Shown: positions 20,201 through 39,570 of the stretch, piece by piece
Layout of the letters: each line of letters opens with the position of its first letter
Position numbering within the stretch: the stretch's first letter is position 1
Origin: Curvularia clavata
Lineage: Eukaryota
Direction of reading: 5' to 3'
NCBI GenBank assembly: GCA_023920165.1
Contig: CP089280.1
Span: forward strand, 1,612,001 to 1,676,000
DNA length: 64,000 nucleotides
Notes under the pieces: model-generated
Seen by the model: the letters and a program-made list of their open reading frames with translations, nothing else
Databases searched by the model: none
Told to the model about the DNA's origin: nothing
Translations under genes and position numbers: made by a program

Positions 20201-20312
20201 TCTTCACTCTGCCAGCCACCAGATGCCATCTGCTTTGGATACAGTCTTCTCAGCCCACACACGCCTCAACTTCTCGAGGCATCCTTGACGTTGGGCACCT
20301 GTTGTCACAGCC

Positions 20313-23300
20313 ATGTCCACCGAGCTGGAGACTGCCGAACATGCAGGAGGTAAATCTCATCTTTCTTTCCTCACTGAACCGACCGGGGATTCCGCCATAG
20401 ACTCAGACCTCCAATATATACGCGAACTCAATTGGGCGGATACCGCTCCTGGCCCCATCACAGAATGGCCACGCGAATTGCTGGTGCTTATCAACCTGGC
20501 CATGCTCAGCCCACAGCCGCAACTGTTTTTATTGGGTCGTGACTCGACCATCTTGTACAACACAGCTTATGGCAGGTTACTCCGCGATTATCATCCACTA
20601 TACCAAGGAAGACCGATAGCCCTCAATACAGCCCTAGTTGGACAGGGGCCGGCAATTCCGAGAATAACCCAAGCAGCAAAGGACGGGTCTGACACGGACA
20701 GCGAACATCACATACCATGTTTCTTTCCTCAACATGGTATACTTCAGGAGGTGTTCCTCTCAGCCACCATGGTAAAATTACCAGTATCCTTGGATGGCTA
20801 CCACGTCACAGCGTACGATGTTACTAAAGAAGTGGTACAGAGGCGTCGAGAACGATCTCTAGATCACATTCGTTGTGCTTCCAAGGATTCCACAGAGCTG
20901 ACTGCCCTTTGGACCTCGATCTTGCAGGGCATATCGAATGGGAATGGCGATATTTCGTTTGCTGCTATATACTATGCCGACAGTAAGCTTGTGCGTGAAA
21001 AGGAGACCGGATTTATATCAAATAAAGTCAGCACCGAGGAATTTGTCCTCGCCGGGACTGTCGGCTCCTTTACAACTCCGCTCCCATCCAGGATTAAGCG
21101 CGGTGAATCACAAGCATGGATCAAGAGTATCTACAAAGCCGTTGATACACGTACCCCCGAGCTTCTTCAGGCAGCAGACGAGACTTTGCCGCAAACAATG
21201 TGTCAGGCATCTAGAGACCGATGCTATGGGGATGATTGTCACCAAGCTGTGATCCTTCCCAGCATCATGAACGAGTCTGGAAGTGTTCATGCTACTTTGA
21301 TCCTCGGACTTGCACCGCGATGTCCTTATGATGCTTCCTACCAAGCGTGGGTGGGAACCCTCCATCAACACTTTTGCAGCAGTGCAGCCGCAGTCACCAT
21401 GGCGGAAGCACAGAAGCTGGCTAAAGAGAATGACCAGAAATTGATAGAAAAGGAAAAGGAAATGCTTGCAAAGCAGATGCAACTGAAGCAACAGGAAGCT
21501 GCACTAGCAACAGGCAAGCTGCAGCGTATGCTGGACGTGATTCAAGCAGCCAGGTTAGTTCTCCTGCACCTATTGACAAGCTATGCTGACTTTTTAGTAA
21601 AAGCATTGGTTTTTTTGAGTGTACCACATCGGGAAACATAACACAGACTAATGTGAGAAAAGATTGCGATCTCCTACACAAACACTGACAATAAACAGGA
21701 GGCATTTTGCGATTTGAGTGGTTGTTCCAGAGACCTCAGTGTACAGTACCAGACGGTGCTAATGGAGCTTTGTGAGGAAGAAGACGAGGCAACACTGACA
21801 TCTCACTGGCAAACTTTAATTGCCGGCCGGTCGACAACTCTTTCAGTAAGATTTCGGGCTTGTGAGCAGGAAAGACAGTGGGTGCAGATAGCCTGCGTTC
21901 CTGTCCTTGATGATTCCCTCGGTGTTGTGAGCATTACAGGTTGTGTAACCACCCTCGACGCACATCAGAAGGCAGAGCACGAGGCTGCTATCAACCATGC
22001 TAAATCCTCGGAGCAAAATCGCTTAAGCGAATCTCGCCTTTTGAACTTCATTGAAAATGCGCCTATTGGAATCCTGATGTTTGATCAGAACAGAACGCCC
22101 TCGTTCGTCAACAAGACCTGGTTTCATATGACAGGACATTCTCCAGTGTCAGCAAAAAGTATACAAGTCGATTCCATCATCTTTCCCGAGGATGTCTCAG
22201 TGTTCAATGCACGCCTGGATGAGGCATCCAAAACGGGCAAATCGGACAGCTTTCCGATCAGGCTCAAGGACTTCCGCAGGAAGGCCTCTGGTCTCTCAGA
22301 GCATACATGGGTGCAGTTCGTAGTTTTCTCAGAAACGCTGGACAATGGCGGCTTTCAAATCACGACTATAATTACCGACATCAGTGAGTTGAAGGGTATC
22401 GAAGCTTTACAGCGTGCAAAGCTTGAGGAAGCCATCGAAGCCAAGCGGCAACAAGAAAAGTACGTTGTCCTCAACCCAATATTGTGTTATCTATCTGACA
22501 CTTCATAGTTTTGTAGATATGACCAGTCACGAGGTATGCTTTTTACTTGATTTAGTACATCTCTGCGTCTAACATATGGTAGATACGGAACCCCCTGAGC
22601 GCCGTCATGCATTGCACGGACTCATTGACGCATTCACTTTCTGAAATCAAAGTGACACTTGATCACGCAAGCCGTCTAGCTACAGGAGATGATGATATCG
22701 CAGTGACTATGAAACGACTTCGAGGTTATACTAGCAATATGGTCGAAGCTGCGGATACCATCATGTCTTGTACTGTGCACCAGAAGCGAATCATCGACGA
22801 TATCCTCTCACTTTCAAAGCTTGACTCTAACCTCTTGGAGATATGCCCATCGGCTTTTCAGGTGAAAGCCTTTCTCGATCAGGTCGAGAGTACATTCAGG
22901 TTCGAAGCCTCACAGGCCGGTGTTACGTTCACAACGATACCTGATCCTTCCCTGAGCCGGCTTGGCATTGATTGGATCGAAGCAGATCGCGGTAGGATGA
23001 TGCAAGTACTTGTCAACTTGGTGGTTAACGCTATCAAGTTCACGAAAGATAGCTCTGGGAAGAGAGCTGTCACTCTCCGTGTCGGCGCTTCCTCTTCGCG
23101 CCCTGCAGATGTGTTTGCCGACCTCATGATGGTGGCATCGCCATCGCCTTCACAACAGAATGAATCGAAAGCTGCCACAGCGGCAAATGGGCAGGAGCTT
23201 TACCTGTGGTGCAGCGTCGAGGATACGGGCTGCGGTATGGACTCGGCTTCCATGAAACGTATTTTCTCTCGATTTATACAAGCTTCGCCCAAAACATACA

Positions 23301-24001
23301 GCAAGTACGGTGGTTCTGGCCTAGGGCTATTCATCAGCCGGAAATTGGTAGCTTTACAAGGCGGTGAGATTGGCTTTGCGTCACAAGAAAATGTAGGATC
23401 GACTTTTGCCTTTTACGCCAAAGCCTCAAAAGCAGCTCCACCAGAAACCGTTACGACGTCTACCTCACCCAAAAAGTCTGGAGAAACCAAGAGTACTAAC
23501 TATCCACACTCTCCGGTCAAATCCGAAATCGCAGAGACTCAGGAGAAATCACAATTAAGCGTTCTCCTTGTCGAAGATAACGCAGTCAATCAGCGTGTCT
23601 TGAAGAAGCAGCTACAGCAACACGGGTACATTGTCCACACGGCAGACAATGGCCGAAGAGCCCTTGAATTCGTCAAGACTTCCCGGCACTGGAAGGATCG
23701 CAGTGATACGACCGCCACAGCCCCAAGCATCGATGTCATCCTCATGGACGTGGAAATGCCCGTCATGAATGGTCTCGAATGTGCGAAGATGATACGTGCT
23801 GCGCAGATTGACAAACAAATTAACAAACACATCGGAATGGTTGCAGTCACTGCAAACGCAAGACCTGAACAGCTGAAGTATGCTACGGAGGCCGGGATGG
23901 ACGAAGCAATCTCTAAACCTTTTCGAGTACAGGACTTGATACGCGTCATAGACAGGCTAGGTGCGCTGGGACGAGGTGATGGCATTCAGCCAGGCACATG
24001 A
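20313..24001 (+). CDS. Hybrid sensor histidine kinase (PAS-like/PAS - HisKA - HATPase_c - receiver), 5 exons
   Basis: NWADT..GPI.EWP N-terminal motif. H-box FVDMTSHEIRNPLSAV after splicing, N-box QVLVNLVVNAIKFT, G1 VEDTGCGM, G2 YGGSGLGLFIS. Receiver VLLVEDN..ILMDVEMPVMNG..TANA..SKPF. Introns about 21554-21597, 21653-21699, 22460-22508, 22534-22582. Confidence 0.93.
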
Positions 24002-30933: not shown

Positions 30934-32302
30934 ATGGCGAAAAGTAAGCTCAAGGCGGCGTTGGATAACTATCAGGGCCGTAATATCAAGCTGGAGAAGC
31001 AGCGCAAGCACGAAAAAGAGGTCCAGAAAAAGAAACAGAAGAGCGAGGAGTCCAAGGCGCAACATGAGAGTAGCGACGAGGATGCTGAGGAGGGGGGCGT
31101 TGCTGTGCCGCTGGACGAGGTAGAGGCAAAGGTCAATGGCAAGGCGAAGAAGTCGGCCAAGGATAAGAAGGAAGGCAAGGCTTCCAAGGCTGCGCCTGCG
31201 GTCAAGGAGGCTGAATGGGAGACGGAGGGTAGCGAAGATGAGGATGAGGATGAGGATGAGGACGAGGACGAGAGCGACGATGAGGAGACTTCTGGGCGAC
31301 CCAAAATCGACCTTGCGCATCTGGACGATAGCGAAAGCGACATCAGCTCGGACGAGGACAACGAAGAAGAGGACGAAGATGACGATGAAGACGATGAGGA
31401 GGAAGAGGAAGATATTGCGCTCTCAGACCTTGACTCTATCGCTTCAGAAGATAAGGGCGACATCATCCCCCACCAACGCCTCACAATTAACAACACCGCT
31501 GCTCTTACCGCCGCTCTGCACCGCATACAACTCCCCTACTCGAAGCTCGCCTTCTCAGAACACCAGTCCGTCACCACCGACGAACCCGTCGAGATTGCCG
31601 ACGTCGAAGACGACCTCAACCGTGAACTCGCATTCTACAAGCAGTGTCTATCATCTGTCAAGGATGCGCGACAAAAGTTGAAGAAGGAGGGCGTGCCATT
31701 TTCTCGGCCGGCTGATTACTTTGCCGAGATGGTCAAGAGCGACGAGCACATGGGCAAGATCAAGCAGAAGCTGATCGACGCAGCAGCTGGCAAGAAGGCG
31801 GCGGCCGAGGCGCGAAAGCAGAGAGACTTGAAGAAGTTCGGCAAGCAGGTCCAGGTCGCCAAGATGCAAGAGCGCGCAAAGGAGAAGCGGGATACCATGG
31901 AGAAGATCAACACCCTCAAGCGAAGTATGTATTTCCACTCCACTACTCACAAGAAGGGTCTACAATTGGCTATGTGTGCATCATATACTAACAAACATCT
32001 CAGAGCGACAAGGCGCAGACATCACCTCTACCAACGAAGAAGACCTCTTCGACGTCGCCGCCACAGCCGAGGACCCCAAATCCGAGCGTCGTGGCCGTGG
32101 TGCCGACGGCAAGGCTTTCAACGCTAAGCGCCAGAAGAAAGACTCCAAATACGGCTTTGGAGGCAAGAAGAGACATGCCAAGAGCAACGATGCCCAGTCT
32201 AGTGCTGATGGCAGAGGTTTCTCTGTCCGCAAGATGAAGGGCAAGACGGGTGGAGGCGCGAGTAAGAGGCCGGGCAAGGCCAGGAGGGCGAAGATGCATT
32301 AA
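30934..32302 (+). CDS. EBP2: rRNA-processing protein Ebp2, 2 exons, about 429 aa
   Basis: Acidic N-terminal region, HQRLTINN, DDLNRELAFYKQ, PFSRPADYFAEMVKSDEHM, RDLKKFGKQVQ, KYGFGGKKR..KSND, KRPGKARR. Intron 31925-32003. Confidence 0.95.
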
Positions 32303-33837
32303 GGATTGGTGGGGATAGTTGATGCATTTTTAACAGGCGCTTATGGCGTTTTCTTGTCTTTCGCCTCTTTCTTCGTCGGACGATGAGGGAGAAGGGATAA
32401 AATGGGCTAGTGAGAATGGAATGGAAAGTGCAAAAATGGCTCGTGTGGCTTTTTTAAACGCAGGGAGTGCTTTTTCTGTATAGTAGTACAGAGATACCAG
32501 TGCTAGCAATACTACGGGATATCCTCGCATGACATGAAGCATTTTTGATGATATAAGTGTTGCATTGGACGCATATGTCTGATACGTGAGTGACAGTATA
32601 GGATGTGAGAGTTTTTGTCATTTCCAATTGTCTCAGACTGACCACAAACAGAACGAGTAGTAGGACTGATTTTTTCTTATAACCTATTTCGCACAACAAA
32701 TCGAGATGCTTGGGCCCGTGTATCCTTTAAGTATTTTCGGAGGGTGTCGGTTTGAGTATTGCGAAAGGTATTAGGGATTGTGTATCTTAGATGCGTGTCT
32801 ATGCTTTTGTGTGTCTCTGCTGATATGTCTGTCAGAGTGCTTTCGAGGGCAAGGCCTGTATTAGTTCCACGACTGTGATTGGCAGGCTAGGGATTTCGAG
32901 ATTGTGGAGAGACTGGTGATTCTAGTAGCTTCTGCTACTTGTCCGTTGTTGCAGAGCGCGGAGATTTCTGGGTGGTCTGATTGGGTGGCGGAGAACGTAT
33001 AGATTGAATGAAATTAAAGGTGCAGGTAGGAATGTAAGGAAGGGCGATCAGTGATCCAATGTAGATTAAAAAGTCTAATTTCCCTATAGATCCACATGTT
33101 TATGCAGTTTTTTGGAGGAGAATGGGTGCGGAGAAGGAGAGCAGGGTGGTATAAGGCAGGTGTGCCGATGTGTCGGATAGCTGTGTGGAAGATTGGAGTC
33201 AGCTACGGAAATCAGTGTGTTTTGACGGATAAGCGAATAGTGAGAGGGACAGACAAGATGCTTCTCAGGAGATACAGGCGTTTGTAACCACATAGTGAAG
33301 TGGACTCAATGCCGTGAGGCTCTCCTGACTTGAATTCAGAGATTTTGATGACGGGTACTTCTTGAAATGAGACTTTTCCCATATGAGGTTCTCAACACAG
33401 ATGAATGCTTGAGAAATGTCGTATTGGCAAGCTCTATAGACAGTGGGTTCCACTTCGTACTTCGTTGTGATACCGTTTCACACCTGGGGTACCCTGTCGG
33501 TGCCTGATTGTGGCACAATCCAACATAATACATGCCATTAAGTCCTTGGTAGTTGCACACCGTTACACTATCACTACAACAACGCTCGTTATCTACAGAG
33601 TTTACTTATCATGCAGCGATAACTTCTCAGTGACTTCTTCGCAGCATTTTTCAGAAAAAACAGGCCCCAAATCTTCTCGGCTTCGACGCCCAAAACCACT
33701 CCCTACATGTATTATTCTGCGATTCCAGGCATATCCACTGGTGGAATAACACAAACTGTGGTGCTGTGGAGAAAGTGTGCATGACATGATGATAAAGATA
33801 CGAGGCTTGGTCGTGCGATCGCTACCGGAAAACCCTG

Positions 33838-34161
33838 TCAAAGCTTGGTCTTCTCCGCTGACATATCAGCCACTTTTGAAGTACCGATGGCAAGGGTATT
33901 TATATCGCGTATGAGGGTCCGTTCGAGCGTACAAGTAAACGAGTGCAAGTGCTGATCAGAGTTTCGAGGCCGTTGCGTGCACCCGGTATTCGGCTCTTGA
34001 TGACTAGGATACAGTGGGGATTGACCATGCATCTTTGTCTTGTCTTGGTTAAGGACAAGATGAGCATTGAGCTTTTGGCGGGCAAGCCGTCTTTTCTGAA
34101 TACGGTTTTGTTGTTTCACATTGAGGCCGGTCAGGGAGAGGGGTTCCTTGGCCGATGGCAT
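33838..34161 (-). CDS. Small orphan with a degenerate NF-YA/Hap2 (CBF-B)-like segment; gene or pseudogene, 107 aa
   Basis: MPSAKEPLSLTGLNVKQQNRIQKRRLARQKLNAHLVL matches the NF-YA A1 helix pattern N.KQ..RI.KRR.AR.KL. Downstream there is only a QRPR remnant of the DNA-binding segment. Confidence 0.5.
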   Translation of the reverse strand: MPSAKEPLSLTGLNVKQQNRIQKRRLARQKLNAHLVLNQDKTKMHGQSPLYPSHQEPNTGCTQRPRNSDQHLHSFTCTLERTLIRDINTLAIGTSKVADMSAEKTKL

Positions 34162-36103
34162 TGTGGCTGTTTGGCGCCAGGGCGTTGGCGCGCGATAAAC
34201 TCGATAATGTTGGCTAGGGACTATGTAGAAATAATGAGACTTGGAGGAATATAATGGGAATCGAGAGTCATGACGAAAGTGCCACATGATCTGTTAGGAA
34301 TGGGGTGCGCTAGGTCAGGCGACACTATCACAACACCATTTCGTCCCAGCATGCATCACCATCTACATCCGCTTCGATACGCCTTGCTGTTCGTAAAATC
34401 AGATTCTTGCCGCGTTTATTCCCGTCCCGGAAATCATCCACTAGTCCTCGGCGGTTATTTTGGTTTGGATCTTTTTTCGTTCAATGGATACCAACTCCGC
34501 TAACGCCAAGCACTAGCACGTCCCACCACTCCGATTTTCTGCCCTTCCAGGGGAACTATACGCGGTGGGAGCTGCATGGGATCATGCGTTAGATGCTCGT
34601 CTTTCACGGGCATGCACCATCACCATATCCTATTCCTCTCGGAGCTGGCATTGATCATACACACGGCGTGCGCGGCGGAGTTCGTCTGCGCACCTTGTGT
34701 TCTAATCATAGGCTTTCGAGAACATATGCCTTCGCTTCTGTCAAAATTGCGGCTGGATGCTTCGTCTTGGCTGTGTCATGGTGTCAAGTCAGCCTTGGCG
34801 CCCTGTGTCCCGCTGTTGACTGATTGGGCCCTGCATGTGATTCTCGGCAGACGTTTTGCAGACGCCTATCTCTGAAACAAGCCACCCGATATTGGAAACA
34901 CGCTAGATCTCTGCTGTTCTAGACGTCGACCCACTGCGGATACAACGGGACGGATCCATTGCGCTAGTGATCAAACCAAGGTACCGACACTCATTCAGGA
35001 GTCGCTCCTCCGTCAAATTCAGCAACCCGAGCAACTACACGTTGGGATTCATCACAGAATAGTTTAGCTGATCGCAAGAGGCACCTTAACACCTCCAAAT
35101 AACTCAATTGTGCTCAAGGGAGTTGTTAATCGTGGTCTATAGGCGCCTATAACAGAGCAACTACAAAAGGTTCTTGTCACGCTCACACGCTCTGTCCAGC
35201 GCTCGTCTCATCCTTTCGCCTCTGTCATCCTGAAGTTGACCCACCCCCTCAAAATACAATATCGCTCCCATTCGCAGTACAGTGGACAGCACTGACGTCG
35301 TGCGATACAGGCTTGCAGTCTGGATCCGCCTGGGCAGGCTGTCGGTAAGTGGTTGTAATGCGTTATCGTCAGTCATTTACCGTCATCAAACATTGAGCGT
35401 ATGGGAAAAATTGTGCCATTACTCACGCCATCAAACAAAATCGGGCACTGCTGGGGAGGTCCCGCACATGTGTTGTTCGCAGAGTCCAGGAGTAGACCCA
35501 ATCGCCTCACATCCGTGAAGCATGGACGTTTAGAAGTGTGCCGCCATCCGACAGGCTGGTACCAGTTTGTCCACAAATGACAAGAGCTCCGAGCGCCAAG
35601 TATCCGAACGTCAGGAAGGCTGTTTGAAACAATGACAGGTCTGGCATCTCTGGCGGCACAGCACAATGACCTAATTATCCAAAGCGGGCGTTACGGCGCT
35701 GAACGCCACTACAAACAGCGATCTCGAATCTCCACAGTCATTTCGCTTCGCCACAGGTCAGCGGCAGAGCGGAGCAAGATTGCAGCCAAGAAAACAAGGC
35801 CTTATGCGCCGAAGCAGACACGGTCAACCGAGAGGGGCTGGGTGGATCTAGTCTCTGAAAAGAGCTAGTGAGCTTGACTGCAGAGTCAAGACAGGCGGAA
35901 GTGCTGAGATACATAATGGGTGGTGTAGAACAACTTGTAAAAATCATCAGCACACCACTGCCAACTGTCTTTCGCTTCTCATCTGTCCTTCGCTCATTCA
36001 TTCGTTTCTCTAGGCTAGTCCTACCACATACAATCCTTTCACTTTCCAGTCCAAATTCAAACACCAAGACCAACCTCAACTTTAACCTCAACCTCAAGTC
36101 AAC

Positions 36104-38320: not shown

Positions 38321-39112
38321 CGTGTTGAATGAACAGGAGATTGGATAGTGAACGGAGTTGTGAGATGTATTTGAGTCGTTGACAAAGTTGAAGAAGTAGT
38401 AGTATAACGAGTTTGTCTGGGATCTCTTGAGATTGATGATATATAGAGTATAGGAAGGATTGAGTTGATTCATTGTGTATATACTACAACAGAGCGTTGC
38501 TGTCACAATAACAAGTACTTTCACCATGTCATGTAAATTGTGATGACTTGCTGAGCACGGACAATTTCGTTTGCAATGCTATTGTGGAATGAAATCCAGG
38601 GCAATTCAAAGATGTGAGCGTATTGTACTCTGACAACAGTTACAATAGCAAGTGTATTCATCTGTTTTCGCGTCCATCTCTGTATCGAGTTCAAAATGTT
38701 GAAAATCTAAAGCTAATGTCTTTCAACCATGATGATGCGCTACAATTCAATATGCATTCTTAGACACGCTCAATAAAGACACCCTAGCTTAATCGGTCTC
38801 TAAATCTTCTCTAGAATACGTCCTATATTTCTTTGATTGGGTAGCATATCATTCGTATGACTCCAAATCAATCGCTCATCACATAGACTAACTGCCGAGT
38901 CTTTTGCTCACTTCCACAAGCTATGCACGCCTCGTACACTTCACCTCAGCTCCATAGCGACCATTCTCACGGAAAAACAATAGCAATTAATCAACACAAA
39001 TCATCATTGTCATTATCAAATTTACGTCCAATATTTACAATACCCTCCTACACTCCGCCAACCCCCTCTCAGTCCCATCAAACGCCACACTCCCTTACTC
39101 CTCTCCCTTCCG

Positions 39113-39570
39113 CTACAAGCAGGAATCCACCTGCTTAACCTCCTTGCACCCATCCTTACCCAGCTGCCATTGATCACAGAGGGTATCGCACACCACTCCT
39201 GGCGCGACAAACACTCTTCCCTCCTGACTGGGATCTCCCTTTGCGTTTCCGACCCATGGAAGACGCCACTGCTTGCTTGTGTCTTCAGGCTTGACGTTCG
39301 TCGCACCTGTTTAAGATTAGCACACTGCGTATCCTTTTGCCCAGCATTTGTAAGAAGACGAGGGAGGGACATACGGTATCCGGCGCGGCAAGCACAGTAG
39401 TAAGGCTTAGGCGCGCCGTTATGTCCCCAGTCCAAAATGCACGAAGTTGTAATGTGGCACTTATTGAGGGTCGGGCGGTAGTCACATGTCGGGCAGGTTG
39501 CTGGGGATGTAGTGGGATTGGCGAAGGCGAAGGAGAAGAGAGTGAGAAGGGCGATGGAGGTGGTCTTCAT
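39113..39570 (-). CDS. Small secreted cysteine-rich protein (129 aa, 10 Cys), effector-like, 2 exons
   Basis: Signal peptide MKTTSIALLTLFSFAFA. Intron 39374-39307 (GTATGT..GCTAAT..CAG) gives ...YCACRAGYRATNVKPEDTSKQWRLPW..QEGRVFVAPGVVCDTLCDQWQLGKDGCKEVKQVDSCL*. Confidence 0.88.

Follow-up and report, generated by a model that had tools for sequence, protein, structure and literature searches.

A conserved family of short HapB paralogues in Pleosporales that keeps helix A1 and has lost the DNA-reading helix: a possible relocalising decoy for the CCAAT-binding complex

INTRODUCTION

Together with HapX, the CCAAT-binding complex (CBC) controls iron, redox, and sterol genes. Its core subunits are required for normal growth in Alternaria (PMC10146468), and the regulation of its activity has been put forward as a key question (PMC2831313). 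In Aspergillus, the complex assembles in the cytoplasm, and HapC/HapE enter the nucleus piggyback on HapB (PMC2831313, PMC6652802). For NF-YA, the contacts to NF-YB/C have been given as V238, N239, K241, Q242, R245, R249, R250, and R253, along with seven DNA-contact residues, and mutants of A2 or the GxGGRF loop trimerise with loss of DNA binding (PMC12101057). The isolated A1 peptide binds NF-YB/C with a Kd of about 1 to 3 μM, a stapled version blocks assembly, and residues Y272, H273, L276, Q280, and A283 are solvent exposed (PMC6900064).

The closest described case to the short HapB reported here (mini-HapB) is that of the mammalian NF-YAr retrogenes, naturally occurring NF-YA duplicates whose DNA-binding subdomain is damaged, for which a possible dominant-negative role has been proposed (PMC12101057). 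In NF-YAr, however, A1 itself is eroded at its contacts and the activation domain is kept, whereas mini-HapB has invariant A1 contacts, has lost the activation region, and has gained putative targeting signals; it originated in fungi, independently of NF-YAr. Engineered dominant-negative NF-YA mutants and A1 peptides (cited in PMC12101057; PMC6900064) bind NF-YB/C without DNA and block assembly, and equivalent behaviour is predicted for mini-HapB, but these molecules are artificial and without organelle targeting. A further parallel comes from peroxisomes, which import partners by piggyback (Mdh2/Mdh3, Gpd1/Pnc1, GID subunits, Hif1): a PTS-bearing partner carries signal-less proteins, and sequestration of regulators has been proposed, although the cases in the sections on piggyback of the two sources include no dedicated truncated transcription-factor paralogue as carrier (PMC9513677, PMC9549241). 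Finally, nuclear export of a subunit controls CBC output in Schizosaccharomyces pombe, where Php4 is exported by Crm1/Grx4 (PMC6652802); unlike mini-HapB, Php4 is a Hap4/HapX-type accessory subunit and exports itself, not the histone-fold core. Among the listed results of literature searches, which covered few subscription journals, we found no description of a short HapB family.

RESULTS

A 107-codon ORF between Ebp2 and an AA9 gene

The window analysed here is a stretch of 64,000 nucleotides from Curvularia clavata (contig CP089280.1, positions 1,612,001 to 1,676,000). Its minus strand encodes, from 34161 down to 33838, an ORF of 107 codons whose exact 107-aa product (P0001) is present in NCBI nr/UniRef, while the plus-strand reading of 33838-34161 is interrupted by stops. 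The initial annotation had reported this ATG ORF without a strand, and the ORF is real. In the Pfam search that had been suggested as a check, residues 13-68 match CBFB_NFYA and no other family, at 29.0 bits (cut-off 27) and an E value of 1.6e-6. The features of the gene are as follows.

33838..34161, minus strand: coding sequence of P0001, the short HapB/NF-YA paralogue of 107 aa (Pfam, NCBI nr/UniRef, contigs crossing without a joint)
34051..34125, minus strand: A1 helix, residues 13-37, predicted HapC/HapE-binding arm (alignment, contact residues, model)
33985..34050, minus strand: Pro-rich linker of variable length replacing helix A2, HESRH lost (alignments; no model helix at 46-74, low confidence)
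33943..33984, minus strand: remnant of late A2 and the Gly loop, with the family Gly-Cys pair (DNA-contact mapping, alignment)
33886..33915, minus strand: NES-like amphipathic motif L83-I87-L90-I92 (class-1 spacing)
33841..33855, minus strand: C-terminal EKTKL, the final TKL being a weak PTS1-like variant (tripeptide comparison)
34280..34322, minus strand: upstream non-coding block with two short motifs common to the related loci L001-L003 (comparison with these loci)
33523..33837, minus strand: downstream stretch, probable 3'UTR (contig cover in sequencing runs)

Homologues begin at the Met of 34161. An in-frame ATG at 34287 could extend the ORF to 149 aa. We disfavour this start, since the ATG, which lies within the 34280-34322 block, opens an overlapping ORF in another frame in L001 and, in L002 and L003, a uORF of 9 codons, and since the 149-aa form is absent from NCBI nr/UniRef, unlike the 107-aa form. 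The conserved block is a probable promoter or 5'UTR element, with a possible function in translational control or as a promoter. The positions of upstream CCAAT boxes are not conserved relative to the related loci. No intron was seen in the ORF, and a hidden exon or intron restoring A2 was rejected because no joint falls inside the ORF in four sequencing runs and the orthologues have an identical single-ORF layout. A plus-strand shadow ORF at 34000-34254 was likewise rejected as the true gene: a variant in two runs abolishes its ATG, and over 117 codons L002 and L003 differ by 6 amino acid changes in the sense frame and by 23 in the antisense one.

The neighbours of mini-HapB in the window are a PDI-like gene, Ebp2, and a divergently oriented AA9 LPMO gene (all by Pfam). 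The interval from the end of Ebp2 (about 32300) to the start of AA9 (36104) measures 3.8 kb, as described earlier, and the only other interval ORF scanned (33084-33293) has no Pfam match. Mini-HapB and the AA9 gene diverge across about 2 kb (window 34162-36103; L001:980-3250). Elsewhere in the window, we noted a short Cys-rich ORF that begins like a signal peptide and matches an EGF-like domain weakly, below the Pfam cut-off (39022-39570, minus strand), and an ordinary multi-exon hybrid histidine kinase gene with PAS, HATPase_c, and receiver domains (20289-24001, plus strand). None of 25 other window ORFs examined is a histone-fold partner.

A short HapB homologue with an intact A1 helix

The best solved-structure match of P0001 is the HapB chain 4g91_A (E 0.016), with 15 of 24 identities in A1, as had been estimated by eye at the outset; against a canonical Pleosporales HapB, the A1 identities are 16/24. 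In hhalign, mini-HapB matches a canonical HapB of this order with a probability of 98.9% (E 2e-17). The Pfam model PF02045 matches every member of the family alignment (26/26) at an E value of ≤0.01. After mapping the contact residues onto the family via the 4awl_A alignment row, we found N239, Q242, R245, R249, R250, and R253 in all 27 family rows and K241 in 26 of them, with a hydrophobic residue always at V238, and the variable positions of the family A1 are the five solvent-exposed ones. The AlphaFold model of P0001 has a helix at 15-45, with mean pLDDT of 84-95 in blocks 11-40 and no helix at 46-74 (low confidence); with an overall mean pLDDT of 64 and a pTM of 0.33, it is informative for the A1 helix alone. 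The ESM Atlas gave only NF-YA clusters for family member P0006, all with scores under 0.9, and nothing usable for P0001.

Downstream of A1, the protein is reduced. HESRH is absent from all 27 rows, and P0001 lacks both HESRH and GxGGRF, as had been stated. The initial annotation had also recognised a reduced A2, which stands, and had begun the remnant at PLYPSHQ, which does not: PLYPSHQ falls in the variable-length linker, and it is GCTQRPRNSDQHL of P0001 that aligns to HAMRRPRGPGGRF of canonical HapB. P0001 keeps two of the seven DNA-contact positions, namely the equivalents of R281 and R283. As a side observation, residues G60-C61 (window 33979-33984, minus strand) include a Cys that occurs in 23/26 family rows where canonical HapB has Ala278; since cysteines mediate the redox regulation of HapC (PMC2831313), the family Cys might have a redox role.

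Relative to fungal HapB/Hap2 (NF-YA; PF02045; PDB 4G91), mini-HapB thus shares the A1 helix with its HFD-contact residues and a remnant of the MRRPRG..GRFLT loop, but it has about 100 aa as against about 360, lacks the Q-rich N-terminal region, the HESRH helix, the KRK segment, and the acidic tail, and instead bears an NES-like motif and a PTS1-like end. We conclude from these alignments that P0001 is an NF-YA homologue and not a canonical CCAAT-reading member. MicroProteins are small dominant-negative proteins with a single interaction domain that are related to a larger protein; in its sequence features P0001 agrees with this description, being 107 aa long, stand-alone, and limited to the interaction domain of a larger paralogue.

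A syntenic family in Pleosporales under selection on A1

A single-sequence search returned four proteins from four candidates, including an Alternaria cluster of ∼101 aa with 32 members (15 of them listed). A phmmer search across the collection gave six matches, of which one, the 2417-aa repeat protein P0024, was dropped as spurious. The profile search yielded 46 matches among 1541 candidates, the best 26 (down to P0044) being short paralogues and the other 20 fragments of canonical HapB. Adding P0016, a member of the Alternaria cluster, to the 26 paralogues gives the 27 family rows used here; these rows are related, and counts over them are not independent. The short paralogues (∼100 aa) include members from Alternaria spp., Clathrospora elynae, Decorospora gaudefroyi, and Boeremia exigua, all Pleosporales, and their database labels read hypothetical or "Transcriptional activator HAP2." Canonical HapB of ∼360 aa co-occurs with the short form, under shared locus-tag prefixes, in C. 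elynae (P0126 and P0034) and D. gaudefroyi (P0130 and P0039), and a canonical AaHapB of 343 aa is described for A. alternata (PMC10146468).

Among eight metagenome loci examined, three (L001-L003) carry the short family. A tree with 44 rows groups the 27 family rows and the proteins of L001-L003 into a single clade of 30, separate from canonical HapB, with a support of 100/99. The remaining five loci have a different HapB-like gene with A2 intact: an ORF of 244 aa at L004:9818-10552, with A2 and loop essentially intact and a Pfam score of 85.5 bits, has matches in L005-L008 and, in the tree, branches apart from the short family. This ORF may encode a second, DNA-binding HapB of another lineage. 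No A2-less long form was found among 84 long matches in profile searches that spanned 341-2000 aa (lengths of 199-340 aa lay outside them); all 84 carry A2, 83 with HESRH and one with HEARH, and fused or long forms of mini-HapB were rejected on this count. Two long entries, P0119 (HapB domain joined to an MFS transporter) and P0147 (HapB domain with carrier and Zn-cluster domains), are probably merged gene models, and P0147 was left out of the canonical set.

A check for syntenic orthologues, proposed with the original observation, came out positively. The gene order in L001 is thioredoxin-PDI-Ebp2-(268-aa gene)-mini-HapB-AA9, with order and orientation as in the window; Ebp2 is also adjacent in L003 and lies at the locus end in L002, and both have the extra gene of L001. 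This extra gene of 268-270 aa, located between Ebp2 and mini-HapB (L001:3780-4586, L002:711-1523, L003:1506-2318), has no Pfam match in its L001 copy. A tblastn search of the window, where its place would be 32300-33800, found no remnant of it (best E 0.097), which suggests either loss or a later insertion.

Selection was computed by the Nei-Gojobori method for the window against L001-L003. Over the 19 codons of A1, pN was 0.045-0.068 at a saturated pS of 0.94-1.01, as compared with a pN of 0.46-0.49 and a dN of 0.70-0.79 for the non-A1 part. Between the window and L001, PDI (0.053) and Ebp2 (0.085) have dN values on a level with that of A1 (0.05-0.07). Whole-gene dN/dS was about 0.23 between the window and L002 (with dS near saturation), 0.18 between L001 and L002, and about 0.08 between L002 and L003. 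These values, which bear out the suggested comparison on the A1 segment, point to purifying selection concentrated on helix A1 and its HapC/HapE-contacting face. We conclude, from gene order and sequence, that mini-HapB is a real conserved gene in a monophyletic, syntenic Pleosporales family of second HapB paralogues. The alternative raised at the outset, a decaying duplicate, is largely excluded by the syntenic, conserved family and by purifying selection.

Putative targeting signals and the relocalising-decoy reading

A downstream KRK segment, which we take to be fungal NLS2, is present in 100/103 canonical HapB sequences and in none of the 27 family rows. The basic A1 helix may itself serve as an NLS, which would speak against a relocalising decoy. 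Behind the loop, the core pattern hydrophobic-x2-L-x-[IL] occurs in 24/27 family rows, in 1/103 canonical sequences, and in 8% of shuffles. Of the 27 rows, 14, among them P0001 (L83-I87-L90-I92), have all four hydrophobic residues at class-1 NES spacing, as do 11% of shuffles; for P0001 alone, such spacing is expected by chance in about 10%. NES-type patterns are frequently false positives (PMC4596688).

The last three residues of the 26 complete rows (the partial P0039 was left out) are PKL in 14, TKL, SRL, and SKL in 2 each, and AKL, PRL, and PKF in 1 each, while the other three rows (P0027, P0040, and P0043) have no PTS1-like end. Accordingly, 23/26 match [SACPT][KRH][LMF], our own widening with T and F added, 20/26 match the published fungal consensus [ASCP][KRH]L, and 5/26 match the strict [SAC][KRH][LM]. 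Random pre-stop tripeptides (10,812) match in 0.7-1.1%, and canonical HapB in none of 103 cases by any pattern. In the clade of P0037, P0038, L002, and L003, the ancestral stop is replaced by TGG and the lengthened tail ends in SRL; in the tree, it sits within a group of PKL rows (support 99/97), and its tail extension differs between L002 and L003 by four synonymous changes and one replacement. Of all observations, this regain of SRL after stop loss hints most strongly at selection for Pex5 binding. In Histoplasma, PKL and PRL send reporters to peroxisomes (PMC13343957), and PKL interchanges with SKL/AKL among orthologues of siderophore enzymes (PMC3709128). The TKL of the window copy falls outside the published fungal consensus; TKL is called "weak but functional" in zebrafish Urad (PMC8919083), and human HPGDS, which ends in TKL, is given as cytoplasmic and predicted not to be targeted (PMC6770196).

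Mini-HapB retains A1, lacks A2 and KRK, and has acquired export- and peroxisome-type signals, and we favour its interpretation as a relocalising decoy for the CBC. It would be a functional second NF-YA subunit that does not bind DNA, and we consider this somewhat more probable than all else taken together. In a first, strongly inferred step, the intact A1 would occupy the groove of the HapC/HapE histone-fold dimer in which HapB normally sits. The resulting trimer, lacking helix A2 and most DNA-contact residues, would then probably be unable to read CCAAT. In the last and weakest step, a captured dimer bound to a protein without KRK and with an NES-like motif and a PTS1 might stay cytosolic or enter peroxisomes. 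As a net effect, expression of the mini-gene would turn down CBC/HapX-dependent transcription. Tentatively, this can be extended to a "reverse piggyback" shuttle, in which a HapB duplicate in a lineage of plant-associated fungi might capture HapC/HapE with its intact A1, export them from the nucleus, and deliver them into peroxisomes via Pex5; sequestration in an organelle would then switch off a transcription factor that is conserved in eukaryotes.

The decoy or microProtein role first put forward for this ORF thus keeps its core, given the synteny, the selection on contact residues, the family-wide loss of the DNA-reading helix, and the canonical HapB in the named genomes; what has been replaced is passive competition, since the C-terminal PTS1-like and NES-like signals, not noted in the initial annotation, shift the likely mechanism to relocalisation. 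Plain competition, in which a dominant-negative microProtein contends with HapB for HapC/HapE wherever they meet, is nevertheless the alternative that survives best, if an unlikely one. The K-x-K-L tail and the amphipathic motif would then serve otherwise, as a degron or for another partner, or would send the free mini-protein alone to peroxisomes for storage or disposal. All of the A1 and A2 evidence fits this alternative equally well, and both the weak tripeptide of the window copy and the three rows without a PTS1-like end speak for it. On the other hand, the tripeptides vary within PTS1 space (SKL, AKL, SRL, PKL, PRL), and this variation, together with the regained SRL, is hard to explain without Pex5 selection.

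What remains of the DNA-reading part

A trimer with HapC/HapE could also bind DNA through the retained RPRGPDGRF loop, with changed or relaxed specificity, much as plant CCT-domain proteins pair with NF-YB/C and bind DNA with altered specificity. GxxG[RK]F is kept in 16/27 family rows, which counts against a pure decoy, as this would not need the loop, and F289 and R283 are kept in 22 and 19 of the 26 alignment rows, respectively. Against an alternative DNA-binding subunit stand the family-wide absence of HESRH, the replacement of H277 by Gly (19/26) and of G286 by Asp (22/26), and the degraded loop in 11/27 rows, which are scattered over the tree and include P0001. KRK loss and the gain of export- and peroxisome-type signals do not fit it either, and we regard it as improbable.

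Transcription and state of the window copy

Four of 24 listed sequencing runs, from four studies, were examined over region 31800-35000, and in each of them the ORF is spanned by contigs without an internal joint. Contigs of X1, X12, and X17 skip the Ebp2 intron (79 nt, GT..AG), which shows that these libraries contain spliced RNA; X17 is the only one of the four recorded as RNA, and the contigs are unstranded with DNA carry-over possible. The contig cover of the ORF in RNA-containing runs, which answers the earlier call for expression data, hence supports transcription without proving it. Positions 32442-33404 are uncovered in every one of these runs, and the contigs of X9 and X12 end at 33523 and 33532; neither the gap nor these ends were taken as evidence. 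Runs with a small share carry no information on habitat. The X1 contig covers the mini-gene and extends about 2.2 kb past 35000 toward the AA9 gene, so that a transcription start is not readable from it. All three CDS variants in the four runs are synonymous (chance 0.013, or 0.035 with transitions only), two of them on contigs of depth <5.

By its sequence, the window copy is among the most degenerate of the family, with a weak TKL and the Gly loop lost, and one could therefore ask whether it is decaying within a functional family. The branch leading to P0001/P0004 is longer (0.63), the non-A1 part has the high dN given above, and TKL takes the place of PKL/AKL. Its frame is intact, however, A1 dN is low at saturated dS, and no variant changes the protein; P0004, which is 68-70% identical to P0001, retains A1, the NES-like motif, and EKTKL, and the ORF has contig cover in every run examined. 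We thus hold decay of this copy to be very unlikely. A role as bait for another histone-fold dimer (NC2 or Pole3/4-type pairs) instead of HapC/HapE, as raised for mammalian NF-YAr (PMC12101057), is hardly to be expected: at the contact positions, mini-HapB and canonical HapB have the same residues, a match that points to a shared groove.

DISCUSSION

A natural, conserved NF-YA decoy has previously been proposed only loosely, for mammalian NF-YAr. The short Pleosporales family offers the cleanest decoy signature, with an invariant partner-binding face and a lost DNA reader. A protein of ∼100 aa and a three-residue deletion make the idea that peroxisomes sequester regulators directly testable. 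Siderophores are partly made in peroxisomes (PMC3709128). If the PTS1 works, mini-HapB would be a purpose-built carrier that sequesters the core of a transcription factor in peroxisomes, and control of the CBC would be tied to the siderophore organelle.
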